Origin: a virus
DNA: 43,652 nt
Reading direction: 5' to 3' (one strand)
UHGV virus genome: UHGV-0201380
The translations under genes were made by a program, and so were the position numbers. The notes below the pieces were generated by a model. The model was given only the letters and a program-made list of their open reading frames with translations, did no database searches and was not told the origin of the DNA. Of this stretch, positions 1 through 34,526 are shown one piece after another (within the stretch, counting starts at the first letter, position 1; every line of letters starts with the position of its first letter).

Positions 1-72
1 ATGCTGCATACCGCGGGTCTATCGGCTCAGGCCCCAGGTCCATCAACTCCACAACACTGCCAGACTTTATAC

Positions 73-2490
73 TCATTCTACCTTCTCCTTACTGTACATA
101 CTCGTACCCATCTCAGCCTCTGCTGGGAACGGGACCTCACCAATGATGCCGTAGTTAGGCCAGAGCTGGTGAATACGCTTAGGTGCATCCTCCATGCACT
201 GCTTAACCAGCAGGCTCGCCTCACGTCCAACCTCCGGGTTGGCGCTGTCCAGATACAACGCATCGTGCACGTTCGTAATCAGGCACACCTGATTGTCGAA
301 CCAGTCACGGGCCAGGAGTGCACGCAGAACCATACCGGCGGCTACCGCCATCAGGAAGAATGCTTCCCCCTGGCACCAGTAGTTAGCCATCTCTGTTTCC
401 TTGTAGTCCATTACCTTCTGCTTACGCTGCCCAGGCACAACCTCTTTCCACTGCTCTTTCTGACGGAAACTGTAGCGGGCACCGGCTGGGCTGGTCCACG
501 TCCCAATGCGGTAGATTCGGTAGCTGCCGTCGTCAGCCTGCTCCCGGTACATGCGCCCCTCCGCACCGGTACGTTCTACCTCTTCCTTGACAACAGCGCG
601 GAAGCCAATTGTTTGCGGGAACAGCGCAGCCTCGTTGTCCAAGAAAGCCTGTGCAAATTCCACCGTACATCCAGTAGCAAACGCAATCCCCTTAGCCGTA
701 GCGCCATACTGGGCTGCAAAGCTAGGAGCCTTAATACCTGTACGCATTGCCTTCCAAAGCGGATGCAGCTCGTGCTTCTTGTTGTGGCAGCGCTCATATA
801 CTTCTTCATACGGTAATCCCTCGCGGAAAGCTAGGCGGTAACAGTGCATATCCGTACCACTCTGCAGCAGTCCCAGCAGTTTCTTGTCACCCGTGTGTAC
901 ACAGGACATAACCACTTCCAGTGCCGAGTAGTCAACCTCAGTGATACGTCCGTTGTCCCCGAATCTACTGGTGAACACCTGCTTCACCTTGGATTTAGCC
1001 ACACCGTCGCCATCCTCATCCGGGCGGGGTAGGTTCTGCAGGTTCGGGTTAGAGCTACTCAAGCGCCCGGTTACGGTGGCGCAAGTATTCAGCCGGTGGT
1101 GAATGATGCCGGAACCATCGGGACGCTCCGGGATTACATACTGCAGCATCCCCTTCCGCTCTTTTACATTACCTCCTGCGTCCAGTACTTCTCGCAAATA
1201 GTAAGTGCCGGTATCCTTCTCCAGCGCCGCCAGTTCGTTCACCAACTTACAGAACTCGAACCCTTGGCGAGCCAGCGCCTCCATTGCATCAGTGCTGGTG
1301 CTATACACAGGGGTGCCATCCTGCAGGGTGCGCGCCTGTCGGAACTCCCCGCGCTCTGCGTACTTCTCCCGGATAACTTCCGGAAGCTCCTGGATGTTCA
1401 CTAGGCCCGGGCAGAAGTAAAGGTCGTCTTCCCATTTAAGTTTCTCTTCCTCGGTATCGAGGCGGAATACTTTAGGGAGCCCCTTGTTCTTACCCGCACG
1501 ATATGTCACTACACGCCACCATCCGCCTTCCGTTTGAAGTTCTTGCATGTGCGTGTCGTGTACAGGTATATAGGTGTGCGCACCATCTTCGTCCTCGTAC
1601 TTATAGTAGTCGGCCTTGACGTACTGCGGAGGGTCATAGGGGACCTTCTTGCGGTACTTTATAGGCCCGCCGTACACCAGTGCAGACATATGAAAGTCCG
1701 ACCCGAAATTGAAGTCCAGCGTCTCCGGCAAGTCCTTCGGGATGTACTGCTGCAGTTCCTGCTTAATCTCACGGATGCGCTGCTCCTGCTCCTCCTGGTT
1801 CTTGCGTGCAATTGGCATATTCACGAACAGGCCGAACCACTCGCAGTACGCCCAAGCTAGCAAGGCATCCATACGTTCCCACACGTACTGCATCTGATTG
1901 CGCTGGGCGAACGTAGCGCACTGGCCGTAGAAGCACAGGGCCGTGTTCGGGATGTCCCCGTTAACCAGGTAGTCATGCAGCAGTATCGGGTCGATCTGGG
2001 AGGTTAACACACCCTGCTCCCATAGAATCTTAACCCCGTCTACTTTGTGCGTACCACCGTACTTAGGAGCCGTCTCGTCCAGAGACGGATACATGCTCTG
2101 AAAGTCCGAGGCGATGTATTCCCCGTGCATTGTGCAGAACACCCTGCCACCGCGCTTGAGGAAGGCCTCAAACTGCTGCCGCTGGTACGTGAGAAACCAA
2201 GAAATCTCATAGGCTGCGTTGTGCGCAACAATAAGCCAGCAATCCTCGGGGATATGAAACCACCGGCAGCCTTCTGCTGCACTGTTTCCCGCCAAGAAAT
2301 CAGCTCTTGAATTGAAGCGCACCGATTGAGTCGCGCCAACAGTGGTAGTACCGTCAGCCTGTGTCGTGTCGATACGCCATGCGGACTCAACAACATAGTT
2401 GTCAGGGCAGTATGGGCTTGCTTTAGAGCCGTAATATTCATGGTTCTCCGTCTCCAGGTCAAGGTGCATTATGCTGGTTGTCATTTCCAC
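73..2490 (-). CDS. Family A DNA polymerase (T7 gp5-like) with N-terminal 3'-5' exonuclease domain
   Basis: 805-aa track ORF. N-terminal MHLDLETEN resembles the exonuclease DxE motif; C-terminal VHDALYLD resembles Pol A motif C. Track start codon is GTG; an ATG two codons in (about 2484) follows a GGAGGG Shine-Dalgarno and is the likelier start. Position after primase and helicase matches phiKMV-like synteny. Confidence 0.9.
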   Translation of the reverse strand: MEMTTSIMHLDLETENHEYYGSKASPYCPDNYVVESAWRIDTTQADGTTTVGATQSVRFNSRADFLAGNSAAEGCRWFHIPEDCWLIVAHNAAYEISWFLTYQRQQFEAFLKRGGRVFCTMHGEYIASDFQSMYPSLDETAPKYGGTHKVDGVKILWEQGVLTSQIDPILLHDYLVNGDIPNTALCFYGQCATFAQRNQMQYVWERMDALLAWAYCEWFGLFVNMPIARKNQEEQEQRIREIKQELQQYIPKDLPETLDFNFGSDFHMSALVYGGPIKYRKKVPYDPPQYVKADYYKYEDEDGAHTYIPVHDTHMQELQTEGGWWRVVTYRAGKNKGLPKVFRLDTEEEKLKWEDDLYFCPGLVNIQELPEVIREKYAERGEFRQARTLQDGTPVYSTSTDAMEALARQGFEFCKLVNELAALEKDTGTYYLREVLDAGGNVKERKGMLQYVIPERPDGSGIIHHRLNTCATVTGRLSSSNPNLQNLPRPDEDGDGVAKSKVKQVFTSRFGDNGRITEVDYSALEVVMSCVHTGDKKLLGLLQSGTDMHCYRLAFREGLPYEEVYERCHNKKHELHPLWKAMRTGIKAPSFAAQYGATAKGIAFATGCTVEFAQAFLDNEAALFPQTIGFRAVVKEEVERTGAEGRMYREQADDGSYRIYRIGTWTSPAGARYSFRQKEQWKEVVPGQRKQKVMDYKETEMANYWCQGEAFFLMAVAAGMVLRALLARDWFDNQVCLITNVHDALYLDSANPEVGREASLLVKQCMEDAPKRIHQLWPNYGIIGEVPFPAEAEMGTSMYSKEKVE

Positions 2491-2688
2491 TTAGCCCTCC
2501 GAGCTTTATTGATAGCTAGATGCACAATCAGCTGGCTGCTGTCCAGCGCGAATCGTTTACGGAAAGTACCTGCAGACGCAGCGTACGCCTTGATTACCTC
2601 TTCGTCGAGGTAGTTAATGTCTGACGGTTTAAGCATAGTAGCCTCCTAGTGTACCTACATAGCGCCCTCATAGAAGGCGCTAGGGAAG

Positions 2689-3969
2689 TCACCGGTTAAT
2701 CTGGCCCTCGTCAAAGCGGCAACGACCCGGCTCGAATCCCACCTCGAATTGCAGTAGCGACTCTTTACCAGACAGTGCCATCTTGTTCTTCGGAGTACTG
2801 ATACCACGGACGTTTTGCATGTGCGGCTGCTCGTTCCTGTCCAAGCATCCCATCATAATCGCCAAGTCCAAGGCACCCTGTACACCAATCTTGCTCTGCT
2901 TCATAGCGGTGAGCGGCGGGAACAACATGTTGTAACCTTCGAGTGAAAGCTGCATAGTCCCTACGATAGCGCAGTCGTTCTCGCACCCAAGGATGCGCAG
3001 CTCCTGCCATTTCGCCTCTAGGTTCTGGTGCTCACTCTCCATAGTACCGCCACGGATATTCGCCACCATATCAATGATGATTACCGCGGGGCGCATCTCC
3101 TCCATGAGCGTGGATATCTGCGCCATCGTCAAGGAGTGCGCAGCCTTAACGCGAATCCGGTCAGCCCTGCCTACTTTCTTGAGGTAGGCTGGCACGAACT
3201 CTTGCTTACTGTGCCGGTCCTTAATCTCCGCCAGAGTCCAGTGCAGCGCCGCTTGATATACCCTCGGCACTGTACGCGTCGCCGGACCCTCGTTAACCAG
3301 CCAGAGAATCGGGCGGTCCCCGTATACTTCCGGCTGCTGCTGCATCTGCTCAGCAAAGTCCACAGCAATAGCAGCAAGCAGGCTAGTTTTACCAGAGTCC
3401 ACAGGAGCAGCCACTGCGATGCAGTCCCCGCCACGTAGACCTCGGATGTTGCTAGCGAGTTGCTCGAACACGCCCAGTTTAAGACCGCCGCTCTCATCAG
3501 TCGCGGCAAGTATCTCGTCAACACTACCGCTCTCCCATTCAAGCAGCGAATCATGCACCGCAGCGCCATCACCGTACTTGCGCTGTAGGTGCTTCATTTC
3601 CAGCAGGTAATCAATCTCCTCGCCGTCTTGATAGCGCTGCGTCAGCGCTGCTACCTCCCCGCTGTAGGCCAGCTCGTTCAGGGTCTGGACAATCCCCACC
3701 ACAGAATCCTGTGGCACGGCTTGTACTCCCCGCATAAGCTCGTCCATGATTACCCGCTCTTCCCGGGACAGGTGCCCCGCCCGGAGGTTTAGCATGCTCT
3801 GCATTGCATCCCACTGAACCTCCTGGTGCTCCGGGTACGTGTTCCAGTACAACCCCACCCAGTCTAGTAGGTTAGCTGTGTCCGGCGCTAGCATGGATTT
3901 GGGTATCTGTTCACGCAGTCGGTTCCATACCTTCTGCGTGCACATTGCCTTAACTACTATTAGGTCCAA
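2689..3969 (-). CDS. DnaB-like replicative DNA helicase (T7 gp4 helicase-domain homolog), encoded separately from primase
   Basis: 426-aa ORF. Walker A AAPVDSGKTSLL and Walker B-like PAVIIIDMV. Start is TTG, preceded by a strong AAGGAGG Shine-Dalgarno 5 nt upstream. Confidence 0.85.
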   Translation of the reverse strand: MDLIVVKAMCTQKVWNRLREQIPKSMLAPDTANLLDWVGLYWNTYPEHQEVQWDAMQSMLNLRAGHLSREERVIMDELMRGVQAVPQDSVVGIVQTLNELAYSGEVAALTQRYQDGEEIDYLLEMKHLQRKYGDGAAVHDSLLEWESGSVDEILAATDESGGLKLGVFEQLASNIRGLRGGDCIAVAAPVDSGKTSLLAAIAVDFAEQMQQQPEVYGDRPILWLVNEGPATRTVPRVYQAALHWTLAEIKDRHSKQEFVPAYLKKVGRADRIRVKAAHSLTMAQISTLMEEMRPAVIIIDMVANIRGGTMESEHQNLEAKWQELRILGCENDCAIVGTMQLSLEGYNMLFPPLTAMKQSKIGVQGALDLAIMMGCLDRNEQPHMQNVRGISTPKNKMALSGKESLLQFEVGFEPGRCRFDEGQINR

Positions 3970-4164
3970 TTAAACCTCCTTAGGAACACAGATTGCTTTA
4001 GCGGTATACACCCTGAATGTGTCAAACTTCTCTTCGAACGCCTTGGCCGCCTTGTTGCAGGCGGCCCCCGTTGTGAACTCTTGAGTGGTTAGCGCAGCGA
4101 AGTCTGTGTCGCTAACCGCACTGCCATTAATCGCCATGATTAAAACCCAGATACCCATACTCAT
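3970..4164 (-). CDS. Hypothetical small protein with hydrophobic N-terminus, translationally coupled between primase and helicase
   Basis: 64-aa ORF. N-terminal MSMGIWVLIMAINGSAVS looks like a signal peptide or TM segment. Its start overlaps the primase stop and its stop abuts the helicase start. Confidence 0.45.
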   Translation of the reverse strand: MSMGIWVLIMAINGSAVSDTDFAALTTQEFTTGAACNKAAKAFEEKFDTFRVYTAKAICVPKEV

Positions 4165-4946
4165 TGTAAAGCCTCCAGAATCTCTTTGATTTCTGCATCC
4201 TTCGGGTCCGCAGCGAAGTAATGCTCACGGCACTGCATGAACGGACGCAGTGCTCGGCGCGCCGCTGCTACCCCAGCATGTCCAGCCGGGTCATTATCCA
4301 GCATCAGAATCACTTCCGGGCGATTCTGAATCAGCCAAGCCCTCAGCGGCGTGGGCAAGCGTGTACCCAGCATAGCTATAGCCTGCACGTTCAATGCACT
4401 GTAACTCGTAACTGCGTGCTGTATCTTCCGGGCTGAGAGTAAGTCCTCGGTGAGCACGACCTTTAGAGGCGCGGCCGCAGCTACAGCCGGTGCTACGGCA
4501 GGTGCCGCGACAGCGAAAGCTATTGGCTGGCCGTACATTACCCACTTCGGTTGCTGCCGAGCATGCACTGCACGGCCCAGAGCAGCGCTTCCGACACGGA
4601 AGATTATCCGCTGTTTCTCTTTGCTCCATTCTGCATCCTCCACCATTTCAGGCATGATTCCCTTTGTGGTCAGGAATCCGTAAATAAAACTCTGCGTTTC
4701 CGCAGGCGCTTGGCTAATGCAAATTGCATCTGCAGGTGCAGCGGGCTGCACCCTCGGCTCTTCCTGTAACTGTATGCGCTGGTACTGCTTGTGCTCCTTG
4801 CCCACCTGTTTGCAGCGGTGGCAATAATATTCCCAGGCATCCGGGTTATTGTAGAGCACCCCGGCGGCGTCCCTGCCGCAGCACCGAAAGCGCGCCCTCT
4901 GCCCAACGGCCAGGCGCTTGCACGCTCTAAGCCAGGGCTGGTCCAT
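4161..4946 (-). CDS. DNA primase (zinc-ribbon plus TOPRIM domain)
   Basis: 261 aa. Cys-rich N-terminus (RFRCCGRD ... YYCHRCKQ) consistent with a zinc ribbon; ILMLDNDPAGHAG matches the TOPRIM DxD motif. ATG overlaps the stop of the upstream ORF by 1 nt. Confidence 0.75.
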   Translation of the reverse strand: MDQPWLRACKRLAVGQRARFRCCGRDAAGVLYNNPDAWEYYCHRCKQVGKEHKQYQRIQLQEEPRVQPAAPADAICISQAPAETQSFIYGFLTTKGIMPEMVEDAEWSKEKQRIIFRVGSAALGRAVHARQQPKWVMYGQPIAFAVAAPAVAPAVAAAAPLKVVLTEDLLSARKIQHAVTSYSALNVQAIAMLGTRLPTPLRAWLIQNRPEVILMLDNDPAGHAGVAAARRALRPFMQCREHYFAADPKDAEIKEILEALQ

Positions 4947-5398
4947 TACTGAATCTCTCGCTTAACTTTCATAGCCATTCGACGAATGTCATGTGCCAAC
5001 TGCAGGGCTGAATCGGGGCTCATATTAATACCAATCTCTCGCTCTGCCCGGGTGCTGCCTTTTCTAGGCACTATTCCGATGTATAGTAGTCCTTCGTTAG
5101 TCTCGCTGTCCTTTTCTAATACCAGCCGCTGGTCGTTTCCTGGGTCTCGTTTAGTGTTTAAATATGCTACACTAGACGGAACCGGTGGCAGCTCGTCCGC
5201 CTCCTCGATTAGCTGCCAGAAGTCGGCAGAGCCGCCATAGATATCCCCGGCATAATGAATCCCTGCGCCTTCGGTTAGCTTGATGTCTATATAGAGGCCA
5301 GGCCCCTTAGTGACTATCTCGCCGCGCACGGTCTTACCTTCAATCTTATTGATGCGCTGAACCTTATCACCTACTTTAAAAAGTTTAGACATAATCAA
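4946..5398 (-). CDS. Hypothetical protein
   Basis: 150-aa ORF tightly packed between the peptidase-like gene and primase, with 4-nt overlaps at both ends. No motif recognised. Confidence 0.5.
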   Translation of the reverse strand: MIMSKLFKVGDKVQRINKIEGKTVRGEIVTKGPGLYIDIKLTEGAGIHYAGDIYGGSADFWQLIEEADELPPVPSSVAYLNTKRDPGNDQRLVLEKDSETNEGLLYIGIVPRKGSTRAEREIGINMSPDSALQLAHDIRRMAMKVKREIQ

Positions 5399-6456
5399 CC
5401 CTCCACAATATTATCGTATCCGCCCCAGTCTTCTACGACTCGGGTGCCTAGTTCAATCAGTTCTTCTTTAAAGCCGTAATCGGAGAACACCATTATGTAC
5501 TCCGCCGCCTTCTCTGGATTCTCCTGTACCCAGCTAACCAGTTGTTGTTTAGAAAGCTGCGATACTTCCCGGAACGCGGCCAGTAACTGCGGGTCCTCGT
5601 CCGGCGGCATATCCCACGGCTGCCGTAAACTGAGCGTCGATGCAGCGAGCCACTGGCATAGGTCTGGCTCTGCTACTGCCGGGTCCCGCTCAATAGGGAG
5701 GTGCGAGAACGTGCCGTCTTGTAGTACCCGCTCAAGCACCTGGCCCAGTATGTTCAGGTCCAGCACCTCATCCGGGGTGTGCTCGTGCATGTACCCTACA
5801 CCGACGTTGGTGCACTCAGGAATGATGCCAACGAACTCAGCCGAGTCAGTATAAACACCCTTCTGCAAGTGCTGCTCCGTGCGTCCCAGGCGCTCTGCTA
5901 GGGTCTTGGCAAAGGTGTCAGAGCAGCAGCGCATATACCTTTGATGCGTAATGATACCGTCGCCGCGGCGGTCGAAGCTAATCATCGCCTTGACCCCAGT
6001 CCAAAATCCAGAGTCATCCTTGACCGATGCAGCGCTACCCTCGCAGCCTACCTCTTCATCCACGAAGAAGCAGTAGCGTCCGTGCACGCCGCGCCGCAGC
6101 ATCTCCAGCATCAGGTAGATACCGGCGCCGCAGTCGGCGCCCAAGCAGTCAGCTTGTTGCGGATTCTTTACGAACAGCACGCCCTTGTTAGTGCAGCCGA
6201 CGTCCGGCGCAGCGCTGGTTGGTCGTGCCACTGTGTCGAGATGAGACGTAAACGCTACGTCACTTTGCTCTGAGTCCCCCACCAGCACGAAGTAGTTCCC
6301 GTGCTTGTCCTTTACGTAGTGCATACCACTACCCAGCGCCTGTAGCGACTGCATAAGCAGCGGCTCGAACCACTTAGTGCTACCCCAGCTAGGCCGGTGC
6401 GTTTGCAGTATCTGCAAGAGCAGCTGCATATCAATCCCGTGCGGATTCAAGAACAT
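5395..6456 (-). CDS. Predicted dinuclear-zinc peptidase-fold protein (M20/M28/M42-like motif pattern)
   Basis: 353 aa. Ordered motifs SHLDTV (HxD), GADCGAG (D), VDEEVGCEG (EE), GYMHEHTPDE (H) match the metal-ligand pattern of M20/M28/M42 peptidases. ATG is preceded by GAGGAGG and overlaps the stop of the upstream acidic protein. Function inferred from motif pattern only. Confidence 0.55.
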   Translation of the reverse strand: MFLNPHGIDMQLLLQILQTHRPSWGSTKWFEPLLMQSLQALGSGMHYVKDKHGNYFVLVGDSEQSDVAFTSHLDTVARPTSAAPDVGCTNKGVLFVKNPQQADCLGADCGAGIYLMLEMLRRGVHGRYCFFVDEEVGCEGSAASVKDDSGFWTGVKAMISFDRRGDGIITHQRYMRCCSDTFAKTLAERLGRTEQHLQKGVYTDSAEFVGIIPECTNVGVGYMHEHTPDEVLDLNILGQVLERVLQDGTFSHLPIERDPAVAEPDLCQWLAASTLSLRQPWDMPPDEDPQLLAAFREVSQLSKQQLVSWVQENPEKAAEYIMVFSDYGFKEELIELGTRVVEDWGGYDNIVEG

Positions 6457-8138
6457 TAAGCTGCCTCCTCTGCTTCTTCTTCATCTTCATCGTTGCCCAG
6501 GTACTTCTCTCCCAAGCAATCAGCTGCATGCTCAGTGAGAATTAACCCGTGCACTGGGTGTTCTTCTGCGTGCTCAATAAGCACTTGCCGGTCCTGTGCA
6601 AACACCAGTTCCTCTTGGTCGTGCACTACACCCTCTACTTCGCAGCGCTCTATGTCCTCGTCGTATACATAGGCGTCGTGGTAATCAGACCAGGTGCAGC
6701 TCCAGCGATTATGCAGACCATCACGCCCAACTACGTACACAAAATCCCCTTCTTCTACGCAGCCGTCGCAGACCATATCACCATCTGCGGTCTCCTGCAT
6801 GTCATCTACAGAGTAGCGACATTCACAGCAGCAGCACCGAGCAGACTCAGTGCCTACGTAGATGTATCCTTCTGAGTCTTGTGCCTCGTACTCATAAGCA
6901 TCACGGATTACAAAGGCATCATCCCCATACTCATCTACGCCGCACTGGCTGCTATCTAGGTATGGCATCAGCACTGCGCCGTTGTATGTTGGGTGCGGTA
7001 TTCGCGCCAGCATTACCCCTTCGAGACATTCAATGTTTTTGGTGTACCCATGCCCCCGCAGGATTGCATCCGCAGCGTTGCCGTAAGCGCGGACGTACTC
7101 GTTAGTTTCTGTGTTAACGATTGCCCGTGCCTGCACTTCGAAATCGTCGCCGAACAGCTCCCCGGTGTACTGGATGAACAGGCGCAGCCCATTATCCGGC
7201 AACCCGTGGCTGGTGGTAGCGTACGTCCGCACAGAGCTATGCTCAAATGAGTACCCGCTCATGCAGCTACCCGGGCCATTCTCGTAGGCGTCGTACCATT
7301 CCTGCTCGGTCTTGCACAGGTACGTTGTAGGGTCTACGTTCATAGCCTTGAGGTCTTCGATAGCATCGCGGAAGTCCACACCATTTCCGTAGTAGTTAGC
7401 GAGCCACTTACCTACGCGCATCTCTACGCAGCGGTACTCAGTAACTGCTGCGAAGTCCTTGTGCATCCGCGGCTGCCCCAGCATCACGATAGGTTCGCCG
7501 TTGCGGAAACCAAAGCCCAAAGGCACGGCGAATCTAGACACTACGAAGCCGTGCAACTTCATGAGCAGCGCAGCTAAGTTGCCATCGCGGGTGTGGCGGC
7601 CGTAATCGTAGCCAGTGTATAAGCGGCGCTGCTGCTCTTCTGGTGCAAGCATGATGCGCTCAAATAACTGCACGGCCTGCTTGTGCACCTTGTAACCTGT
7701 GAATTCTTCGACGCAAGCAACTACGCGCTCAACCACTACATCCTCGCCCTCATAGAAGTCGCGGCGGCGTTCCCAGAACTTGCTGTCTATGGTGATTCGC
7801 ACCGGTTCAAAGAGTTCGCAGAAAGTTCCGGACCGGTACAGGTCCACCTTTTGCAACGGGCCGAGCGTCATCGTTGATTCGCGATACTCTGGGTGCAGTG
7901 CCCCGCCTATAGTCACCTCTAAGCCTGGAGTGTGCGCACTGACAGTGCGGAGACCCATAAGCACCTGCAGCGGACCCTCAGTGTGGGGATGGTCCTCCCC
8001 TTGCATTTGCAAGTCCTGGAACGGGGTCCAGTAATCACCGCTGGAATACATTGATTCTTTAATCGGCAGTGCGTTTGCACCTTCCGGTAACACTACTTTC
8101 CATTCGATAGGTGCTGTGTTAGTTTCTTGCATTTTCAT
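6456..8138 (-). CDS. Large early/middle protein of unknown function with Cys cluster and polyacidic C-terminal tail
   Basis: Track ORF is 6456..8426 (656 aa), but its 5' end overlaps the upstream 114-aa gene. ATG codons at about 8138 and 8132 follow a GGGAG Shine-Dalgarno, giving about 560 aa. Contains CCCCECRYSVDDMQETADGDMVCDGC and ends DEDEEEAEEAA. Confidence 0.6.
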   Translation of the reverse strand: MKMQETNTAPIEWKVVLPEGANALPIKESMYSSGDYWTPFQDLQMQGEDHPHTEGPLQVLMGLRTVSAHTPGLEVTIGGALHPEYRESTMTLGPLQKVDLYRSGTFCELFEPVRITIDSKFWERRRDFYEGEDVVVERVVACVEEFTGYKVHKQAVQLFERIMLAPEEQQRRLYTGYDYGRHTRDGNLAALLMKLHGFVVSRFAVPLGFGFRNGEPIVMLGQPRMHKDFAAVTEYRCVEMRVGKWLANYYGNGVDFRDAIEDLKAMNVDPTTYLCKTEQEWYDAYENGPGSCMSGYSFEHSSVRTYATTSHGLPDNGLRLFIQYTGELFGDDFEVQARAIVNTETNEYVRAYGNAADAILRGHGYTKNIECLEGVMLARIPHPTYNGAVLMPYLDSSQCGVDEYGDDAFVIRDAYEYEAQDSEGYIYVGTESARCCCCECRYSVDDMQETADGDMVCDGCVEEGDFVYVVGRDGLHNRWSCTWSDYHDAYVYDEDIERCEVEGVVHDQEELVFAQDRQVLIEHAEEHPVHGLILTEHAADCLGEKYLGNDEDEEEAEEAA

Positions 8139-8523: not shown

Positions 8524-8729
8524 GCGCTATCCTTGAATACCACGTTGCGGGCCACAAGGGTGCTACAACTTAGCATTACCACCCCGCCAACTGTGTGACT
8601 GGACGGCAACCACAGTCTAGTCTCCTCTGCATAGAATTCTGCGAGGGCGTGCAGTGGACTAAATAGAGGTACCCGGTAAAGAAACCCATTAGGGCGCTTA
8701 TATACGTCATAAATGTCCTGCTTGCTCAT
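8511..8729 (-). CDS. Hypothetical early protein
   Basis: 72-aa track ORF in the early gene string, overlapping the next gene by 13 nt. A further 58-aa ORF (about 8730..8905, below the track cutoff) appears coupled upstream. Confidence 0.4.
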   Translation of the reverse strand: MSKQDIYDVYKRPNGFLYRVPLFSPLHALAEFYAEETRLWLPSSHTVGGVVMLSCSTLVARNVVFKDSACSQ

Positions 8730-8914: not shown

Positions 8915-9178
8915 TCAAATTTCGTTATTGCTCTTACCATCCACCGTGAGCGTTACCGCAGCGTCCTGGTACTGCTCCTGCACCGCCGCAAGGATACGTG
9001 CGCCCAGCTCTTTGCAACCACCCTCGGGGTCTTCAAATAGGTCGTACTCAGGGCGCGGCTGCGGCTCCTGCGTTGCCGGTTGCTGCAACTGCACAGTGCA
9101 GTATGGGATTGGGTTGTTTATGTCGTTGCCCAGCACCAGCATAGCGCTGGTCACAATGATGTTGAATACATTAACCAT
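8915..9178 (-). CDS. Hypothetical early protein with hydrophobic N-terminus and acidic C-terminal half
   Basis: Track ORF 8915..9208. An internal ATG (MVNVFNIIVTSAMLVLG...) follows GGAGA and overlaps the upstream stop, so about 87 aa. Confidence 0.5.
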   Translation of the reverse strand: MVNVFNIIVTSAMLVLGNDINNPIPYCTVQLQQPATQEPQPRPEYDLFEDPEGGCKELGARILAAVQEQYQDAAVTLTVDGKSNNEI

Positions 9179-9404
9179 AAAGTTGTCTCCAGTCGTTGAT
9201 AATGCCAAGATTCACGGCGTCCAGCACAGTGCGGGCAGCCATTTCGGTGTAGGTATCCACAAATTCTAAAGGGGATTCCTGATTAGTGTCTTTGTCAGAG
9301 AATATGACCACAGTGTAGTTGTATTCTGCGTATACCCGATTGCACCACACGGGCCAGAGTTCATGGCCCGGATAGACCAGTATTGCTTTCATATGAAACC
9401 CCAT
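9171..9404 (-). CDS. Hypothetical early protein
   Basis: 77-aa track ORF; the likelier start is the ATG about 12 nt in (MKAILVYPGHELW), which follows a G-rich Shine-Dalgarno. The conserved 30-bp hairpin element lies just upstream. Confidence 0.5.
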   Translation of the reverse strand: MGFHMKAILVYPGHELWPVWCNRVYAEYNYTVVIFSDKDTNQESPLEFVDTYTEMAARTVLDAVNLGIINDWRQLYG

Positions 9405-9418
9405 ACGCCAGTTGCATT

Positions 9419-9448
9419 CACATAGCGCCCCGCAGGACGCTATAGGCT
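9419..9448 (-). promoter_or_regulatory. Conserved early-region hairpin element, copy 2
   Basis: 30-bp element, 27 of 30 identical to the copy at 10135..10164. Contains a 6-bp inverted repeat ATAGCG/CGCTAT whose stem positions covary with copy 1 (ATAGCA/TGCTAT). Lies 15-45 nt upstream of an early gene start. Confidence 0.4.
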
Positions 9449-9521
9449 TGCTACTAGAGATATTCGCCCGCCACTACAAATAACAGCACCACCGCCGTTA
9501 TGATAACCATGAATTCTACGC

Positions 9522-10097
9522 TCATGCCGCCGCCTTCAAAGTTGCGTCCAGTACAGCGCGTACATCCACGCCCTGCGATACCAGCATATACACGAGGTCA
9601 GCGTCGCTTACACCAGTCTCTTTTGCCTTCTTGATAGCGTTTTTAACGCGCCCCAGCGCTTGCAAGCGCACTGCATCGGCATCCAGCGCGTCATTCTTTA
9701 CCTGCTCCGCTTCGGCAGCGTACAGGGCCATACAGGAGCTATAGAAGCTGGCTACAATTACTTCGCGCTCCTGCTTGTCAGCTTGTTTATAGTCCAGACG
9801 CATAGTGTCCAGTTCGATGCCCAGCTTCTCAGCAGACGCATAGCACTTCTTCGCGTTGAATTCGTATTTGCCGGACTCCTTGTTGAACTTGATAGGCAGC
9901 AGCGTACGCAGCACCATATCGAAGTCCGCGGCATCGCTGCGCTGCATATCCATAGCCCAGGAAACGTTGCTGCTAATCAGGCCGTGGAAGAGCGCGCTAA
10001 TAGTGATGTTGCGCTTTGCTTCCACTACGTCGCCCAGCGCTTTACGAATGCTGCCCGCAGCGGTGAGCTTGAATACTTTACCAGTTGAATGGGTCAT
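9522..10097 (-). CDS. Hypothetical early protein (first sizeable early gene)
   Basis: 191-aa ORF. ATG is preceded by AAAGAGGTG; it lies downstream of the putative host-promoter region and the conserved hairpin element. No recognisable domain. Confidence 0.6.
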   Translation of the reverse strand: MTHSTGKVFKLTAAGSIRKALGDVVEAKRNITISALFHGLISSNVSWAMDMQRSDAADFDMVLRTLLPIKFNKESGKYEFNAKKCYASAEKLGIELDTMRLDYKQADKQEREVIVASFYSSCMALYAAEAEQVKNDALDADAVRLQALGRVKNAIKKAKETGVSDADLVYMLVSQGVDVRAVLDATLKAAA

Positions 10098-10134
10098 AAT
10101 GCACCTCTTTGATTGGTTGTTTAGGTAATTACTT

Positions 10135-10164
10135 CACATAGCACCCCGTAGGATGCTATAGGCT
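10135..10164 (-). promoter_or_regulatory. Conserved early-region hairpin element, copy 1
   Basis: Same 30-bp element as 9419..9448, here with stem ATAGCA/TGCTAT. Sits about 40 nt upstream of the 191-aa early gene. Confidence 0.4.
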
Positions 10165-10168
10165 GTAA

Positions 10169-10366
10169 TTATCGACCAAATTGGGAGTTAACAGTAGGCC
10201 ATCCAGATGGCTGCCTGCTACTGCCCTTTTGTTTTTGCTTTCCCCTCACCCTGTGCTCACTGCTCAACCCTTGTTTGCTAGGCTTCACAGTAAGCGGCAC
10301 GTCGTCGGTGGGATTCAGTGATAATTGCATATTCCGCCGTAATGCTAAACGCTTTGATTTGCGCAT
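10169..10366 (-). CDS. Hypothetical small highly basic protein
   Basis: 65-aa track ORF rich in Arg/Lys (MRKSKRLALRR ... KQKQKG). ATG is preceded by GAGAGGTAAG. It is the first ORF downstream of the candidate sigma70-like promoters. Confidence 0.35.
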   Translation of the reverse strand: MRKSKRLALRRNMQLSLNPTDDVPLTVKPSKQGLSSEHRVRGKQKQKGSSRQPSGWPTVNSQFGR

Positions 10367-10785: not shown

Positions 10786-10814
10786 AATCTAGCTTATGTT
10801 CTTCGCGGTGTCAA
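10786..10814 (-). promoter_or_regulatory. Candidate host sigma70-type early promoter
   Basis: Minus strand reads TTGACA - 17 nt - TAGATT, in the same non-coding early leader. Confidence 0.3.
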
Positions 10815-10966: not shown

Positions 10967-11383
10967 TCACTGGGAGCAAAAAGAGTAAGCAGACCCCCAA
11001 AGGTCTGCGTGCAGTAAACTATTGTAGTCCCCATAAGTCACGTCGAACTCTCGCCAGTTAGTATCGTACTCAGGACTAGCCAATAACTCATCCTTTGTGA
11101 AGCATCTCCCTTCCTGAATCTGTGCTAAGTGTATGGCCCGGTGAGTGTCAGCGCTAACCAGTATCAGGTTATTGAAGTCACAGTTAAGGCGGTTACTGTC
11201 ACAGTGATGTACGTGATAGCCAGAACCGTAGCTAGTGATTCCCAGAGCATCCATAACCACGGCCCTATGCAGCGCCACAGTCTTATAGTCTCTCTTACCT
11301 CGCTTATTCACATACTCAGGCCCAGCACCATTAATCACTGGATAACCTTCCTTATCAACCACAATCTTAAATGTTCTAGCCAC
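10967..11383 (-). CDS. HNH homing endonuclease
   Basis: 138 aa with HVHHCDSNRLNCDFNNLILVSADTHRAIH (HNH core). Free-standing, between the terminus repeat region and the early promoters. A GC hairpin plus T-run overlaps its last codons (about 10975..11008). Confidence 0.8.
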   Translation of the reverse strand: MARTFKIVVDKEGYPVINGAGPEYVNKRGKRDYKTVALHRAVVMDALGITSYGSGYHVHHCDSNRLNCDFNNLILVSADTHRAIHLAQIQEGRCFTKDELLASPEYDTNWREFDVTYGDYNSLLHADLWGSAYSFCSQ

Positions 11384-12205
11384 AACAATATCTCCTTACA
11401 TAGTGATTAGTAGCGTAACCATAGCGACGATATCCCGGAGGGATAGGAGCGGAGGTTACAAGATTCTAGGTAATGCTTCCCTCCCTACGGTCAGTCATAC
11501 AGGGCATTACTAGGGGATACTAGTGACTACTAGTGAGTAGTAGTAAGTAGTGTGTATATAGTGCCCTAAAACCCTCCTACTCCTGTAACATCATTTCATG
11601 ACAGCTTTCGAATGAAAGTAAGAGCAAGGGGATAGCAAAGAGATAGCGCCGGGATAGTGTTGGGTGAGGATGTGCGCCCTAGTGGGGAGCGCGCAGCGTA
11701 GCATATAATCGGCACAATGTAAAGCACTAGGGATAGCCAGTGGATAGCCTAGTGCATACTAGGGATAGCACCGTGACGCACTACAGCGCACTAGGCAGGC
11801 CCACTATGGCCCCACAATGCAGGCACTAGGCGGGCCCACTATGGACGCGCAAAATAAGCAAGGCAGAGCGCACCCCTACGGCCCACAGGGAGCGCACAGG
11901 GATAGCCCCTAGTGCCCCGTAGAGCGCACAGGAGCCACTCAGTGCCACGCACAGGCCAAGCCGTGGGGCAGCACTAGCGATAGCCCCAGCGCAGCGCAGG
12001 GAGCCACTGAGGCCCTCTGAGGCTTCCGCTATAGCCACGGTCTTAGCTGCCGTGGCGCTCCACACCTCAGAGAGCGCCCTAGGGCCGTCTAGACGTCTAG
12101 GCACCCACCCCACCCCTCCTTTTATGCGCTAGGCACCCCCTATGGGGGCAATTGGCGTCGTTGAGGGTGAGGGAGGCTCAAGGGCGAGTATAATAATTTT
12201 TGGTT
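11384..12205. repeat. Non-coding repeat-rich region, probable physical genome terminus or terminal-repeat neighbourhood
   Basis: About 820 bp with no ORF of 60 aa or more on the coding strand. Dense short direct repeats (GGGATAGC about 8 times, CACTAG/CTAGTG about 9 times), a 21-bp direct repeat CACTAGGC(A/G)GGCCCACTATGG twice about 39 bp apart, and tagt-type microrepeats at 11521-11560. Lies between the last late gene and the early region. Confidence 0.5.
11575..11591 (-). promoter_or_regulatory. Candidate phage-RNAP promoter-like motif, copy A
   Basis: Exact 17-mer TCCTACTCCTGTAACAT (minus strand ATGTTACAGGAGTAGGA), one of three identical copies in the window, here within the terminus region. 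Confidence 0.35.
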
Positions 12206-12667
12206 TCAGATATACACCTGCCCCGGGGTGAAGGCCTTGTGTTGCTCTTGACGTTTCTCTAGTACCCACTTGCAGATAACTTCGTAGGAGCTGTGCTTCT
12301 TCATGTAACGCTTACCGTCCTTCCAGAACTCCCCGCGCCAGCAGGTGCCAGTGTAGTATACACCCCTAGGATGTTCCCGCTTAGACCTGCGTGCGTTACA
12401 GTTGTTTTCGCTAACCGTAGCTAAGCGCAGGTTCTCTAATCTGTTGTCACCGGGGTTTTGGTTGATGTGGTCCACCACATATCCGTCTGGAATAGGCCCG
12501 TTGTGTAGTTCCCAGATGAGGCGGTGTGCCTGTATCTTTCTACCAGATACCTGTACCACCCAGTAGCCACGAGTGTTGCGGGTACCCGCTGGAGCACCGG
12601 CGCGCCTACCCTTGAGCCACACCAAGCAGCTAGGGGATGTTGTGTCATATTTGATGTTCATAGACAT
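12206..12667 (-). CDS. HNH homing endonuclease (HNH plus AP2-like DNA-binding region)
   Basis: 153 aa with HRLIWELHNGPIPDGYVVDHINQNPGDNRLENLRLATVSENNCNA. Last gene before the terminus region. The upstream intergenic region carries GTATCTCTA direct repeats. Confidence 0.85.
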   Translation of the reverse strand: MSMNIKYDTTSPSCLVWLKGRRAGAPAGTRNTRGYWVVQVSGRKIQAHRLIWELHNGPIPDGYVVDHINQNPGDNRLENLRLATVSENNCNARRSKREHPRGVYYTGTCWRGEFWKDGKRYMKKHSSYEVICKWVLEKRQEQHKAFTPGQVYI

Positions 12668-12763: not shown

Positions 12764-14719
12764 TTAGAGATACACCTCCCAGGCTACCTGGGATACATCC
12801 GCTGCGTTACTACTCCTAATCACGAAGCTGTTTAGGTCCGGATTAGGTGTAGGTACATCCTGGTTCTGTGCTACGCCAGTAACCGTCAAGGCCCCAGCAC
12901 TAGAAGGAAAGGTTAACCGCGTCAACTTGACCTCAGACACCCACTTGAAGGAGTTAGCTACGCTGCCAAAGTTTCCGCGTACACGAGCGTTGACCGTAGC
13001 CTCACCCGCAACCAGTGTTGCCACTCCGCGAATGCTTGTGTCGTCCAGTAAGTTCCTGGACATGCGCGGAGGCGTAGGCTGCACAGTATAACCACTCAGT
13101 AATGCCCAAGACACACCGTGACCGGTCATGTCATTATTGGACATAGATACCATGGTAGGGTTAATGCCCATAGTCCCGTGGAAGTACACAGCTCTTCCGG
13201 TACCGTCGTAGCGCATGCTCACGTCATCAATCTCCAGGGATGTCTGCGCTGTCTCAGCCACATCCTTAGTGACGAAGATGTGAGAGCTGGAGTTGCGCGT
13301 GTACCGACCGCCTTTAACACGGCCCCCGTTGATTCGCACACCATTCTGGCTACCGTGAGCCTCGCAGTCATAAACGTAGCCACCACCGTACGAACAGTTA
13401 AAGCCAGAGCGTACGTTGTCATAAGCTAGGCACTCCCTATAGATAGGGAAGGCTACACCGGTGTTGGAGGCGAACCCGTCCAGAGCTGCACGGTAAGCTC
13501 GACAGTTCAAGTACTCTACCCCGTTAGTGCGCGCTTGGAACCCATCGTCAGCACTGTCGTACGAAACGCAGCGAACGAACTTCACACGCTTACCAATGTC
13601 GTGAGTATCAAATCCAGCATGGGTTGTGCTGTAGGCTTCGCAGTTAACGCCTAAGAACTCGATAGGCTCTCCCCACTTGTCCCCGTCTGCAGTGCTCTGC
13701 CAGTTCAAAGAGATTGCGTGGCGTACGTCCATAGCGTGGATATCGTGTACTTCCGTGTCCTCTGAGCAGCCGAGCACCTCTACCCCGTACCATCCGATGT
13801 TGTAGAAGTACGTACCCTTAACGGTGCTGTCTACGCAGTTATTGAACTTGATAGCGCTACGCCCTTCTATATCAGAAGCCCCTGGGCGTTTGTTGCCAAT
13901 AATAACCCCGTCCTGGATGTGCAAGTCCGCGGCAAAGTTGGCAGAGATACCGATAGTAAAGAACCGGTTCAAATCGTCGTAGCCGAACTCGTTGATGTAC
14001 GGGGATACTAAGGTTACGTTCTCCACCATTGTCGGGATACCTACTTCCGCAGCATCAGACAGGTAGTAGTTATAGTGCAGCGCTTTATCCAGCCGAATGC
14101 TGGTGACGCCACCGGAGGTGCTAACACCCACCACTTTCCTAATCTGGGAAATCTTTACCCCGTAGGTGTTAGGCCCACCGTCGCATAGCTTGTTAGAGCG
14201 AAGATACAAGTACGTACCTTTTACCACAGACAAAGCACCAGCAGCCACCGTAATGACTTTGCTGCCCGCCGCAGCGTCCGCCGCTAACGGTACGAACGCC
14301 GATGGTGCCGCGCCGATAATATTAAGCACCTGACGCGCAACCGCAGCGTCCGGTAGGATTCTTCCGGTATCGGTAAACTCTAGCGTAGAGTTGCTTTTGA
14401 TGTTGAGCACACTCGTGGCCTGCAGGACTGTGTCCACAACCAGGTGCCTATTAGGCGCGCTCATGAACGTGACTATGCCTGCCCAATTGCTGAACCAGGA
14501 GCTGTATGCCGGGCCCGTGAATTTACGGAGCAGATACCCACCGGGCACAGCAAACACAGTCCCGTTATCTACTACCGACGCAGCAGTAGTAAAGGTGAAA
14601 TCCCCACCACCACTGCCCAGTAGGATAATCTTGTCCTGCACCTGAAAGTTTGGATATGCTACCATGCTCGCCAAGTCGGAGAATACCCGCTCTGGAGCTA
14701 CTAATCTAATTAACGCCAT
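12764..14719 (-). CDS. Tailspike protein, probable polysaccharide depolymerase (beta-helix)
   Basis: 651 aa, Gly/Asn/Thr/Ser/Val-rich composition typical of parallel beta-helix tailspikes. Encoded after the lysis cassette at the genome end, as in KP34-like phages. Substrate unknown. Confidence 0.7.
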   Translation of the reverse strand: MALIRLVAPERVFSDLASMVAYPNFQVQDKIILLGSGGGDFTFTTAASVVDNGTVFAVPGGYLLRKFTGPAYSSWFSNWAGIVTFMSAPNRHLVVDTVLQATSVLNIKSNSTLEFTDTGRILPDAAVARQVLNIIGAAPSAFVPLAADAAAGSKVITVAAGALSVVKGTYLYLRSNKLCDGGPNTYGVKISQIRKVVGVSTSGGVTSIRLDKALHYNYYLSDAAEVGIPTMVENVTLVSPYINEFGYDDLNRFFTIGISANFAADLHIQDGVIIGNKRPGASDIEGRSAIKFNNCVDSTVKGTYFYNIGWYGVEVLGCSEDTEVHDIHAMDVRHAISLNWQSTADGDKWGEPIEFLGVNCEAYSTTHAGFDTHDIGKRVKFVRCVSYDSADDGFQARTNGVEYLNCRAYRAALDGFASNTGVAFPIYRECLAYDNVRSGFNCSYGGGYVYDCEAHGSQNGVRINGGRVKGGRYTRNSSSHIFVTKDVAETAQTSLEIDDVSMRYDGTGRAVYFHGTMGINPTMVSMSNNDMTGHGVSWALLSGYTVQPTPPRMSRNLLDDTSIRGVATLVAGEATVNARVRGNFGSVANSFKWVSEVKLTRLTFPSSAGALTVTGVAQNQDVPTPNPDLNSFVIRSSNAADVSQVAWEVYL

Positions 14720-19656: not shown

Positions 19657-22600
19657 TTAATCGTCTCCGAAGTTATTGATGATAGCTCGCGTAGGTGCGA
19701 ATTCCTGGATTAACGGCACCTGCTTAGTGAAGGTCTTGATATCCATATTACCGGTAGCCAGGTCCTGCACAGCCCCAAGTAGTCCTGTGACGTAACCCAT
19801 AGATGCCAATGAGTGACGGGGAGAATCCCCCAGGAAGATATCCTGTAGTAAGGATACACCGCCAATGGCACTCATACCCATCACGGACTCACCGATGAGT
19901 TTCTGGGTGTCTACGTCCTTCCCATCCATACCGTGCTTAGCCATAGTAGCCAGTAGCATCAGCGGGAATTGATACGCCATAATATGGGCTACGCCAATCC
20001 ACCCAGCGTCGCTCAGCTCCCTACGCAGAATCTTGTTAGTGGCGGCCAGTGCGAAGCTCTGGTACCCTACAATGACTTTGCCGATAGGGTTGAACTGTGC
20101 AAAGTGTGAGGTCTCTCCAGTACGAACCTGCTGTACCAGGTAGTCCATCATACGCGTCCCTACAACCTCAACTTGCATTTGCAGGTCCGGCTGGAACATG
20201 GCGCCCGGGTTGGCTTTGTTGGCAGCGATGGCACGGTCAGCAACGTCGCGGGTAAGCCCGAAACGCTCCAGACGCTTAAACGCCGCAGCATCACCCTTGA
20301 ACATCTGGGTAAGCTCATCCGCCACAATGCCGGAGTTCAGGTTAACCTGCAGCCGGTGCACCATGCTCATACCGTTGACGTGACGCGCAGCCTGCCCAAC
20401 GTTCTGGGTTACATTGAACCAAGAGGCCTGACGGGTCAGGTCCAGGTTATCGTCGGCGTACGTATTCAACCAGCGGAAGCGCATCTCCTTCTGGATATTA
20501 CCTCGCAGTACAGTGTCTAGACGGGTAGCCATATCCGGAGTCTTGATAGCTACGGCACCTTCCTTGAACCAAGGCTGGTCACGCATACTACGCAGCACTC
20601 TAGCCATACCGAACTCCTTCATAGCCAGGGCAGTGTCAGTCAGCTGATACAGGCCGGAGTTCTTAAGCATGGTGGCGTTAGCCATGTTCCCGGCTGCACG
20701 CAGCAAATCCGGAAGCTGTCCGGCGTCAGCAGGCGCCCCACCCAGGATAAAGTCGATGGTGTCATTGACTGTCTTCTCCCACTTAGCGGAATCCGCCAGT
20801 GCGTGCTTAGACTCATCAATCATCTTAGCTAGCTGGCCCAGGTCCTGTACGCCTGCATAGGCCATGCCTACACGCCCAGACATACGGTTAGTGTACCCGT
20901 GCATAACCTTGGCTACATCAGTATCCATCAGGTCCTGCATGCGCATGCTCTTACCGTTCACCAGATACTCTTTGTCCATGTTGAACCGAGTACGCTGACG
21001 CAGGTTCCGCGCAGGGGATGTGCTACCGGATTCGCGTACGTTACCAGCCAGGAAACTCTGGATTGCAGATTCATCTACACCAGCGCTACGCATAGCCATA
21101 ACGACCTCGTCGTTACCCATGCCGTTAATCAGCTGCTTCCACATCGGGCCGGACTGCCCTGCACGGCCGTTGTAGATACCGTCAACCATCTCCTTTGCAA
21201 CACGCTGCACTACCTCTGACTCCATGCTCGGGTACACGTCCCGCAGGGCGGACCTGAACAGGGCGCGGTAGTCGTCCAGAGTGTTACCCTGCGCAATACC
21301 TTGGCGCATCTTGTCGTAGCTGTACTGACGCGGGAAGTAGTAATCGGATTTAACCAACGCACCATCATCCACTAGACCAGCATTGAGCATATGCTCGTGC
21401 CACTTGCCTGCCCAGCCAGAGCGGCGATAGGCGTCAACCAGTGGGGCAATCTCTGCATCCGGTACGGGAACAGCTCGGCCGTTTACATCAGCACTGTAGG
21501 CAGCATCCAGGTACTTGCTCAGGCGGTCTTCCAGTGCAGCCCGCTCAGCGCGGAACTTGCTCCGATGGAAGAAGCGCTCAGAGAAACCTACACCCTTATC
21601 CTTCAACGCGCCCAGGATAGCGTCTTCCACTACGCTAGCGCTGGCGTCCATCTCCAAAGTGAGGTTGCGCTTGAAGTCCACTACAGACGGGCGACGGCCG
21701 CCTACTGCGGACGCATCCGACACTAGCAGTTTAGCCAAGTCTTCATTGCCTTGAGCGATGTTATCGTACAGGGCAAACATAGTAGAGAGCTTCTTCTTAG
21801 CGCCATCCAGCATAGCTTGGGCACCCTTAGCCTCGTTTAGGGTAGTGCTGCCCGCCAGGTCCTGGAAGGCTTCACTACGGAAGCCCTGGGCTTGGTCTGC
21901 ATAATCCTTAGCTGTCCACTTAACGGCGTCCTCGTACGCATCCAAGACATCTTCCAAGGCAGAACCTTTGGCCTTGATGCCCAGGGCATTCATGATGTAC
22001 TCGCCCAGTTGGCGGAGCATGCTCTTACCGGTTGGGGATTTCGTCCGCGCCAGATGCTCAACCCACTCAGGGCTGTCACCTAAGCCTGCCAGCATCTCGT
22101 GCACATTACTAGCGTAATACCGCATACGCGGCGTCAAGGTGGAGTCCGCTGCAATAACAGCGCGCACTTCATCCAGGCGCTTAGCAATCTCTGGGTTACT
22201 GTCAACGGCGCGCGCAGTGGCGGCATGAATCAGTTCGTGCACGGCTACCCTGCTTGTGTCTGCATCCATAGCACGCAGTGCGTCCCCTGCTGTAGTCCAT
22301 GTGCTGCCATTAGCTCGCTTAGGTGCGCGTAGAGACACCTCTCCACGCTTAGCTAAATCTTGCTGTGCGTAAGTGTAGCGGCTGCGGTTTGCGGAGCCTG
22401 CTACCAGTTTAAAATCAATGTCATTTACAGCATCGCCCAGCGTGTCCAGAATAGCCTTCTGGCCTGCTGTTAAGTGTTCGGACTTCTTCAAGAACTGAAC
22501 TACGTGCTGTGCTTTCATGTTCACGGAGGCGGTATTGTTTCTAGATACTTGGATGCTTTCATCCAGTGTCTTAGTAAGGATTTCCTCTCCCTCTCCTACT

Positions 22601-34501: not shown

Positions 34502-34518
34502 TCCTACTCCTGTAACAT
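34502..34518 (-). promoter_or_regulatory. Candidate phage-RNAP promoter-like motif, copy C
   Basis: Exact 17-mer TCCTACTCCTGTAACAT (minus TTAATGTTACAGGAGTAGGA), immediately after the RNAP stop and before the structural module. Loosely reminiscent of T7-group promoters in length and the TAAT-start/purine-rich-end layout. Confidence 0.4.
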
Positions 34519-34526
34519 TAAATTTT

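Follow-up and report, generated by a model that had tools for sequence, protein, structure and literature searches.

A two-part RNA hairpin repeated between early genes of a KP34-like phage genome, and its resemblance to the RNase III sites of T7

What is the role of a short sequence that stands twice between the early genes of a phage? The question is raised by the virus genome UHGV-0201380, a stretch of 43,652 nucleotides that was analysed over its whole length (the window), in which a repeat of 30 nucleotides occurs at positions 9419-9448 and again at 10135-10164. For the proposed genus Kp34likevirus this sequence has been published under the label "putative phage promoter", with the consensus AGCCTATAGCGTCCTACGGGGCGCTATGTGAA and two early-region sites per genome (Eriksson 2015, Viruses 7:1804, Table 3). 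The answer given here is a different one. The repeat is the inner part of a two-part hairpin in the messenger RNA (mRNA), and its likeness to known sites suggests, with moderate confidence, that the hairpin is an RNase III-type processing or stabilising signal in early mRNA.

The repeat was described in an original prediction, made from the DNA letters, as a degenerate 30-mer present in two copies. On the plus strand of the window the degenerate 30-mer is found exactly twice, and none of 100 dinucleotide-preserving shuffles contained a match. A repeat finder stretches both copies to 32 nucleotides (9417-9448 and 10133-10164), with 91% identity. The copies differ at the three positions first noted, two of which pair with each other (G-C against A-T), the third being in the loop. 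Each copy had also been placed 15-45 nucleotides upstream of an early gene start. This position holds for the genes of the minus strand, since the conserved CUAUGUG is followed after 37 nucleotides by the ATG at 10097 (copy 1) and after 26 nucleotides by the ATG at 9392 (copy 2).

The structure is best seen on the minus strand, which is the sense strand of the early genes. A stem of six base pairs had been proposed, and this proves to be an underestimate. The upper stem has 10 base pairs (UAUAGCNUCC / GGGNGCUAUG), with two U·G wobbles closing it, and a lower stem of 7-8 base pairs flanks the repeat. The two stems are joined by an internal loop of four by four nucleotides, 5'-AGCC / UGAA-3', which contains one C-G pair. 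The whole forms a quasi-continuous helix of approximately 21-22 positions, or roughly two helical turns.

Copy 1 extends over 10126..10171. It begins with the lower-stem 5' arm UAAUUAC (10171-10165), of which the first triplet is the UAA stop codon of an upstream gene for a protein of 65 residues. The 5' side of the internal loop, AGCC, follows at 10164-10161. The upper stem pairs 10160-10151 with 10146-10137 around the tetraloop UACG (10150-10147), and the hairpin is completed by the 3' side of the internal loop, UGAA (10136-10133), and the lower-stem 3' arm GUAAUUA (10132-10126). Copy 2 extends over 9409..9456 and is built in the same order: the 5' arm UAGUAGCA (9456-9449), which opens with the UAG stop codon of a 23-codon mini open reading frame (mini-ORF), AGCC (9448-9445), the upper stem (9444-9435 paired with 9430-9421), the tetraloop UGCG (9434-9431), UGAA (9420-9417) and the 3' arm UGCAACUG (9416-9409), with one A·A mismatch in the lower stem.

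Both copies fold stably on the sense strand, as a folding check of the prediction called for. The energies are -21.3 kcal/mol (z -4.39) for copy 1 and -26.3 kcal/mol (z -3.31) for copy 2, and the antisense folds are weaker (-18.2 and -15.6 kcal/mol, respectively).

Two sets of relatives were used to follow the structure beyond the window. In reverse orientation, a 3-kb stretch around the repeat matches 251 phage records, and nearly all of these come from KP34-group podophages of Klebsiella (Drulisvirus). The first set consists of 39 loci anchored on the protein of 191 residues that is encoded between the copies, and these loci are hence unselected for the motif. The second set comes from pattern scans of viral contigs with CCTATAG-N-CTATGTG(AA), among the matches listed. 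Loose pattern scans gave mostly chance matches, of which only those whose inner part also paired were kept.

A MAFFT alignment of 69 elements (A1) displaced the lower stem in half of the rows and was excluded from the pair counts. A covariance model, R1, was built from 13 gap-free sequences (subset A2). In the window it reports exactly two sites, both on the minus strand: copy 1 with 77.4 bits (E 3.5e-19) and copy 2 with 48.9 bits (E 4.8e-11). Over the collected relatives it reports 98 sites in 73 sources.

The covariation had been called weak when only two copies were at hand. Among 82 distinct sequences the pairing is kept, which carries the evidence past those two copies. Pairing cells amount to 95.8%. 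Shuffled data give 76.8%, slid partners no more than 58%, and the observed values were reached in 0 of 500 shuffles. Changes on both sides of a pair are seen at 13 of the 17 pairs, comprising all seven of the lower stem and six of the ten of the upper stem.

Because the 82-sequence alignment had been fitted to model R1, the lower stem was recounted in Python, with the register fixed by the invariant core. In this register 80% is paired; the figure falls to 12-39% when the register is shifted and to 47 +/- 3% when the partners are permuted. The arms occur in 34 distinct combinations that are widely different yet complementary, for instance TAATTAC/GTAATTA, AGTAGCA/TGCAACT, GGTTAAT/ATTAACC, AATGGTA/TACCGTT, AAGTAAT/ATTACTT and AGTGATG/CATCATT. 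An independent prediction by RNAalifold arrives at this fold too, with the C-G pair of the internal loop. Thus the base-paired RNA structure that had been proposed is strongly supported by the sense-strand folds, the covariation, the fixed-register count and RNAalifold.

Strict conservation of sequence is confined to AGCC-UAUAG / CUAUG-UGAA, which makes up the internal loop and the base of the upper stem. Towards the apex both stem and loop are variable, and in the lower stem no sequence is conserved. Of the 82 sequences, 80 retain one of the U·G pairs as a wobble and 78 the other; on the opposite strand these pairs would be C·A mismatches. These two conserved pairs, together with the better energies of the sense strand, place the function in the coding-sense RNA.

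Several natural variants of the element were found among Drulisvirus relatives. In one (L059 11921-11981 and L144 2056-2116), a 5-nucleotide insertion in the apex of copy 1 produces an upper stem of 12 base pairs and a loop of 5 nucleotides, so the top of the hairpin tolerates a change of length. In others, a third copy lies 88 nucleotides past copy 1 (L122 1519-1662, L143 2330-2477, L147 2334-2477). It has a new lower stem, GGUUAAU/AUUAACC. Between copy 1 and this third copy there are a ribosome-binding site and a mini-ORF of seven codons (MVGYGEG), whose stop codon again lies in the lower stem.

Hybrid elements form another group (L104 9129-9185; L227 204-260, also in L238). They join the 5' arm of copy 1 to the 3' arm of copy 2, and only one of the seven lower-stem pairs is left. 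These phages have lost the gene for the 191-residue protein, evidently by recombination between the 32-bp direct repeats.

Where does the element stand in the genome? GC (guanine-cytosine) skew, the table of open reading frames (ORFs) and the matches to PHROG families assign the genes to the minus strand. With a tail-fibre gene at 12767-14719 and an early region that descends from approximately 11.5 kb, the window is a circularly permuted complete Drulisvirus (KP34-like) genome.

Within the early operon, the two copies fill the only two sizeable gaps. Read in the direction of transcription, the gene of 65 residues (10169..10366, minus strand; phrog_32970) is followed by copy 1 and then by the gene of 191 residues (9522..10097, minus strand; phrog_5277), which has one copy on either side and whose ATG is preceded by the ribosome-binding site AAGAGGUG. 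The putative mini-ORF (MSVEFMVIITAVVLLFVVAGEYL; 9454..9525, minus strand) is a hydrophobic reading of the sequence that falls below the size used for the ORF list. Its ATG overlaps the TGA of the 191-residue gene (ATGA), and it ends inside the lower stem of copy 2. The gene of 73 residues (9171..9392, minus strand; phrog_7657) comes after copy 2. An in-frame ATG at 9404 would shorten its distance from CUAUGUG to 14 nucleotides. Its ribosome-binding site is GGGG, and in relatives GAGG. Pfam and PHROG searches with the flanking early proteins returned families of unknown function only, so the gene content is uninformative on the role of the element.

A promoter scan finds a sigma-70-like host promoter, TTGACA-17-TAGATT, at 10786..10814 on the minus strand, approximately 620 nucleotides upstream of copy 1. 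It matches the host promoter given for KP34-like phages (Eriksson 2015, Table 3), which puts both hairpins within the early transcript of the host polymerase. With -35 and -10 hexamers spaced by 16-18 nucleotides as the criterion, the scan reports no sigma-70 promoter at the elements themselves.

The surroundings of this transcript have two further features. The early leader, where it runs from the upstream phage promoter to the sigma-70-like one, holds an ORF of 138 residues with a GTG start that resembles HNH endonucleases (10970-11383, minus strand), and an HNH gene is present in this region in some annotated relatives and not in others. Farther out, at 11788-11852, the non-coding DNA that separates the early region from the tail-fibre end of the genome contains two tandem repeats of 30 nucleotides (GCACTAGGC.GGCCCACTATGG.C.C.CAA; 87% identical, period 35 nucleotides), which probably lie close to the genome termini.

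The position between genes is a general property of the element. A scan of 100 distinct instances found the end of an upstream ORF in 92 and an identifiable downstream gene in 83. In about 78 of the 92, the upstream stop codon lies 3-8 nucleotides before CCUAUAG and thereby in or beside the lower-stem 5' arm. From CUAUGUG to the next ATG there are 24-44 nucleotides in about 65 of the 83, and this is the distance seen in Autographiviridae.

The element is also found outside Drulisvirus. Phage SP6 has one copy (2362-2417), which separates gp6 from gp7 and precedes the RNA polymerase gene; it lies downstream of the ocr-like gene gp5, with one small gene (gp6) in between. UAB_Phi78-like and K1-ULIP33-like phages (Molineuxvirinae) have one copy each. 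The E. coli phage J8-65 (Bonnellvirus) has one copy directly after the SAMase gene, with a core identical to the Drulisvirus consensus. In Drulisvirus, SP6, K1-ULIP33-like phages and J8-65 the element always stands between early genes. The carriers belong to different phage genera, and their hosts are all Enterobacteriaceae, which points to a common host factor.

A weaker look-alike occurs in P22-like phages (P22, L264 1984-2015). Here the sense strand of the PL operon has, in the interval from ORF67 to gene 17, a hairpin CCUAUAGCAGAUU-UACG-AGUCUGCUAUGUGA with a stem of 11 base pairs. It starts immediately past the stop codon of ORF67, and the next gene is 86-144 nucleotides away. The stem base CCUAUAGC...GCUAUGUGA and the UACG tetraloop are in common with the element, but there is no clear lower stem and model R1 gives only 15 bits (E 0.085). 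This hairpin may be a relative, a chance match or an independent hairpin.

Several other roles can be considered for the repeat. The published label makes it a promoter for the single-subunit RNA polymerase of the phage (Eriksson 2015), and it is indeed the longest repeated intergenic motif of KP34-like genomes and stands upstream of genes. A template made by polymerase chain reaction (PCR) that contained the repeat nevertheless yielded no RNA with purified KP34 RNA polymerase, and 5'-RACE (rapid amplification of 5' cDNA ends) located the true promoter as T(A/G)ATGTTACAGGAGTA (Lu 2019, PMC6834552). The sequence of that promoter is unrelated to the repeat. Exact copies of it (TRATGTTACAGGAGTA) are present on the minus strand at three other sites of the window, 11578-11593, 22597-22612 and 34505-34520, none of which overlaps the element. 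The first of these, of the 'S2' form TGATGTTACAGGAGTA, stands upstream of the whole early region and apart from the hairpins. CCTATAG has an apparent likeness to positions -6 to +1 of T7 and SP6 promoters. A promoter does not require that its unconserved 5' flank covary with its 3' flank, as happens here, and the same core is found in phages with other polymerase specificities, such as SP6. The element and the putative Kp34likevirus promoter are identical in sequence, the published function is unsupported, and the promoter reading is essentially refuted, with next to nothing left in its favour. A role in the DNA itself is very unlikely. The sequence is an inverted repeat, as expected of a palindromic operator for a dimeric protein; a nick site like that of phiKMV was offered as an alternative by Eriksson (2015); and the natural recombination seen in the hybrids (L104, L227/L238) and the third copies (L122, L143, L147) would suit the boundary of a cassette for shuffling early genes. 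However, the helix is perfect on the sense strand only, the complement acquiring C·A mismatches and a weaker fold. The half-sites change together within a copy and differ between copies, which fits base pairing and not the recognition of fixed half-sites. Likewise, the lower stem covaries without sequence conservation, and direct repeats are expected to recombine as a side effect, which by itself proves no DNA function. Control of elongation by the host polymerase, whether as a pause, terminator, attenuator or antitermination RNA like HK022 put, is unlikely too, if a shade less so. It is favoured by two stable hairpins in series within the early host-polymerase transcript, and by the look-alike in the PL operon of P22-like phages. 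But the hairpins are trailed by UGUGAAGUAAUUACC and UGUGAAUGCAACUGG, neither of them a U-tract, and a scan for intrinsic terminators reports none at either copy. Efficient termination would be harmful with essential early and middle genes downstream. Here each site is a single bipartite hairpin, and put has two stem-loops. No Rfam family matches either: Rfam 15 gives no match in the window at gathering thresholds, and a permissive search of 9350-10250 gives a microRNA match at chance level only.

The remaining competitor keeps the RNA structure and dispenses with the cut. In it, the hairpin would be a regulatory or stabilising RNA: the target of a sequence-specific protein, from host or phage, by which the following gene is controlled in translation; a place that RNase III binds without cleaving; or a barrier to exonucleases or RNase E. 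This is the main alternative, though an improbable one, and several observations favour it. Conservation is strict exactly at AGCC-UAUAG / CUAUG-UGAA with a variable apex, and the U·G pairs stay wobbles and do not drift to Watson-Crick pairs. The next ribosome-binding site is close, about 5 nucleotides past the lower stem of copy 2. The internal loop has the form bulge, one-base-pair helix, bulge, a motif type that is reported to uncouple binding by RNase III from cleavage (PMC1540722). On the other hand, no candidate binding protein is common to all carriers, since the flanking early genes differ between Drulisvirus, SP6, K1-ULIP33 and J8-65, and the operons and intercistronic slots are shared with T7-type sites. 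Moreover, the proven RNase III sites of T7 are equally conserved locally, so conservation is no argument against RNase III. In its broadest form this competitor would be a distinct motif, absent from Rfam, that has spread through the early operons of unrelated enterobacterial phages (Drulisvirus, Bonnellvirus, SP6-like and possibly P22-like) and is recognised without catalysis by RNase III, for which a host RNA-binding factor or a non-cleaving RNase III would be the candidates. This too is improbable; if true, the bound factor would set the timing or level of the genes that come after the anti-restriction and other first-expressed genes.

A few sequence matches touch on these rivals without overlapping the element. 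A sequence variant of the KP34 promoter with three mismatches, TAATGTGATACGAGTA, lies at 43369-43384. The phiKMV nick consensus, CGACNNNNNCCTACTCCGG, does not match the elements, and the nick-site candidate was rejected. A match to it with one mismatch, CGACGGCCGCCTACTGCGG, is found at 21692-21710 on the plus strand, although overall the number of matches with up to three mismatches is no more than chance would give. A likeness to the second half of this consensus is also seen in the complement of the KP34 promoter (CCTACTCCTG...).

The preferred explanation is processing by RNase III. Substrates of the E. coli enzyme span about two helical turns (Pertzev & Nicholson 2006, PMC1540722). Internal loops confine the cut to one strand, so that a protective 3' hairpin remains, and a minimal substrate has at least 11 base pairs between the scissile bond and the tetraloop (PMC1540722). 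The geometry of the element agrees with the rules for two-turn length and internal loop. The 3' side of its internal loop starts at position 11 from the tetraloop, after the 10 base pairs of the upper stem. Were the cut to fall on this 3' side, the element would also agree with the rule of 11 base pairs.

On this explanation, the copies would act in cis within a polycistronic early mRNA of the minus strand that starts at the host-type promoter at 10786-10814. Host RNase III would bind the two-turn helix, and the internal loop would limit cutting to its 3' side, as at the early sites of T7. The upstream message, which is that of the 65-residue gene or that of the 191-residue gene with the mini-ORF, would end in the hairpin, which would protect it at the 3' side. 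For the downstream message, cutting would create a defined 5' end approximately 22-43 nucleotides before the start codon. It is by analogy that the enzyme, the cut and any consequence for stability or translation are proposed. An RNase III site of the kind that separates the early messages of T7 had been among the suggestions of the original prediction. Of that suggestion, the anatomy, the placement and the companion hairpins described below agree with the element, the consensus sequence of T7 does not, and the function would follow from analogy.

A number of observations weigh against RNase III processing. RNase III needs no sequence as strict as AGCCUAUAG...CUAUGUGAA, and a sequence-specific protein could equally account for it. 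The loop of the element resembles the bulge, one-base-pair helix, bulge motif that is reported to permit binding and block cleavage (cited in PMC1540722). The hybrid variants live almost without a lower stem, which indicates that the full structure is not essential for viability. The searchable literature holds no Drulisvirus transcriptome and no RNase III work on SP6-, KP34- or phiKMV-like phages.

Comparison with T7 by sequence adds to this side. The consensus loop sequences of T7 (ACUCAAGG ... CCUUUAUGAU) are absent from the window, and the matches to CCTTTATGAT there are at chance level only. Model R1 finds no T7 site at E <= 10 in T7 1-8000. A second covariance model, R2, was built from seven T7 sites and one site from a K1-ULIP33-like contig, with R3.8 omitted though its fold is canonical. 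Its top match in the window is copy 2, in register and non-significant (15.6 bits, E 0.53), and copy 1 follows at E 7.8. The weak scores across models mean that the likeness to T7 is one of architecture and that homology is not demonstrated. In T7 itself, the positions used for R6.5 and R13 fell on no hairpin. Confidence in RNase III processing is moderate because the literature searches returned no data on cleavage or transcript ends and because the strict conservation may reflect another binding factor.

Why does the identity of the element matter? The motif entered the literature as a "phage promoter" of KP34-like phages, and an mRNA structure of the T7 RNase III type is a concrete, testable alternative. 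A full-text literature search for the motif sequence returned no paper besides Eriksson 2015 and Lu 2019. The sequence itself is already on record there, under a wrong label. What appears to be new is the RNA structure, with its lower stem, covariation and strand asymmetry, the T7-like anatomy and placement, and the presence across several genera outside Drulisvirus, none of which is described in the searchable papers. If the explanation is confirmed, intercistronic processing hairpins, so far a textbook feature of T7, would extend to the KP34, Bonnellvirus and SP6 lineages, and such sites would occur as lineage-specific sequence variants.

There is also a practical side. Drulisviruses serve widely as chassis for therapy and engineering against Klebsiella. 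Recombination occurs naturally at the 32-bp direct repeats, as the deletion and duplication variants show, and the hairpins probably affect the expression of the neighbouring early genes. For both reasons they matter when genes are inserted or deleted in this region.

The closest known system is the set of RNase III sites of T7 (R0.3, R0.5, R1, R1.1, R1.3 and others). Like the element, these are bipartite hairpins on the mRNA strand with approximately two helical turns. When R0.3, R0.5, R1, R1.1, R4.7 and R18.5 are folded, each shows a lower stem, an internal loop, an upper stem of 9-10 base pairs and a loop of 4-5 nucleotides (3 nucleotides in R4.7). Overall, T7 sites have lower stems of 5-8 base pairs, upper stems of 9-10 base pairs with G·U pairs, and loops of 3-5 nucleotides. 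A lone C-G pair inside the internal loop, as in the element, is predicted among these folds for R0.3 and R1.1 only. In both systems the local sequence is conserved among copies, but the sequences differ, with AGCC-UAUAG...CUAUG-UGAA in the element and ACUC-AAGG...CCUU-UAUGA in T7. The internal loop is symmetric (4x4) in the element and asymmetric in T7.

Placement is alike as well. In T7 and here, the hairpins are intercistronic in an early polycistronic mRNA, with a stop codon at or in the lower stem and the next ATG approximately 25-35 nucleotides away. For example, the lower stem of R0.5 contains the stop codon of gene 0.4. The T7 cuts lie 27-35 nucleotides before the next start codons, and the cut coordinates used agree with the UAU|GA positions located in the sequence.

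T7-type hairpins also accompany the element in other phages. In the K1-ULIP33-like (SP6-like) contig L175, a textbook T7-type site (ACUCAAGG...CCUUUAUGA) at 12477-12531 was found by model R1 at E 2e-4. It reads GAGUUAU-ACUC-AAGGCAUCU-UACG-AGGUGCCUU-UAUGA-AUAACUU and lies directly past the stop codon of the DNA polymerase, approximately 20 nucleotides before the next ATG. SP6 (L263/L266) has more bipartite hairpins, at 1569-1620 before the ocr-like gp5 and at 8527-8586 before gp11. Neither these two SP6 hairpins nor that of L175 is annotated in the records.

In J8-65 (L265 1933-3660), a bipartite hairpin occupies each of the five successive early gaps between genes, with the KP34-type element in the first. 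The four later gaps hold T7-type hairpins by model R2, at 2527-2580, 2924-2976, 3253-3304 and 3607-3660, three of them with 31.3, 23.0 and 22.2 bits (E < 0.05) and the fourth weak (15.3 bits, E 0.61). The hairpin at 3607-3660 reads GACUCAAGCC...GGCUUUAUGG. The T7-type hairpins of J8-65 and the SP6-like phages differ from the element in their T7-like loops, ACUCAAG.../...CUUUAUG or CUGACAGG.../...CCUGAA. In operon, type of gap and architecture they are as the element is, and the slot that the element occupies in SP6 is comparable to that of R0.5 in T7.

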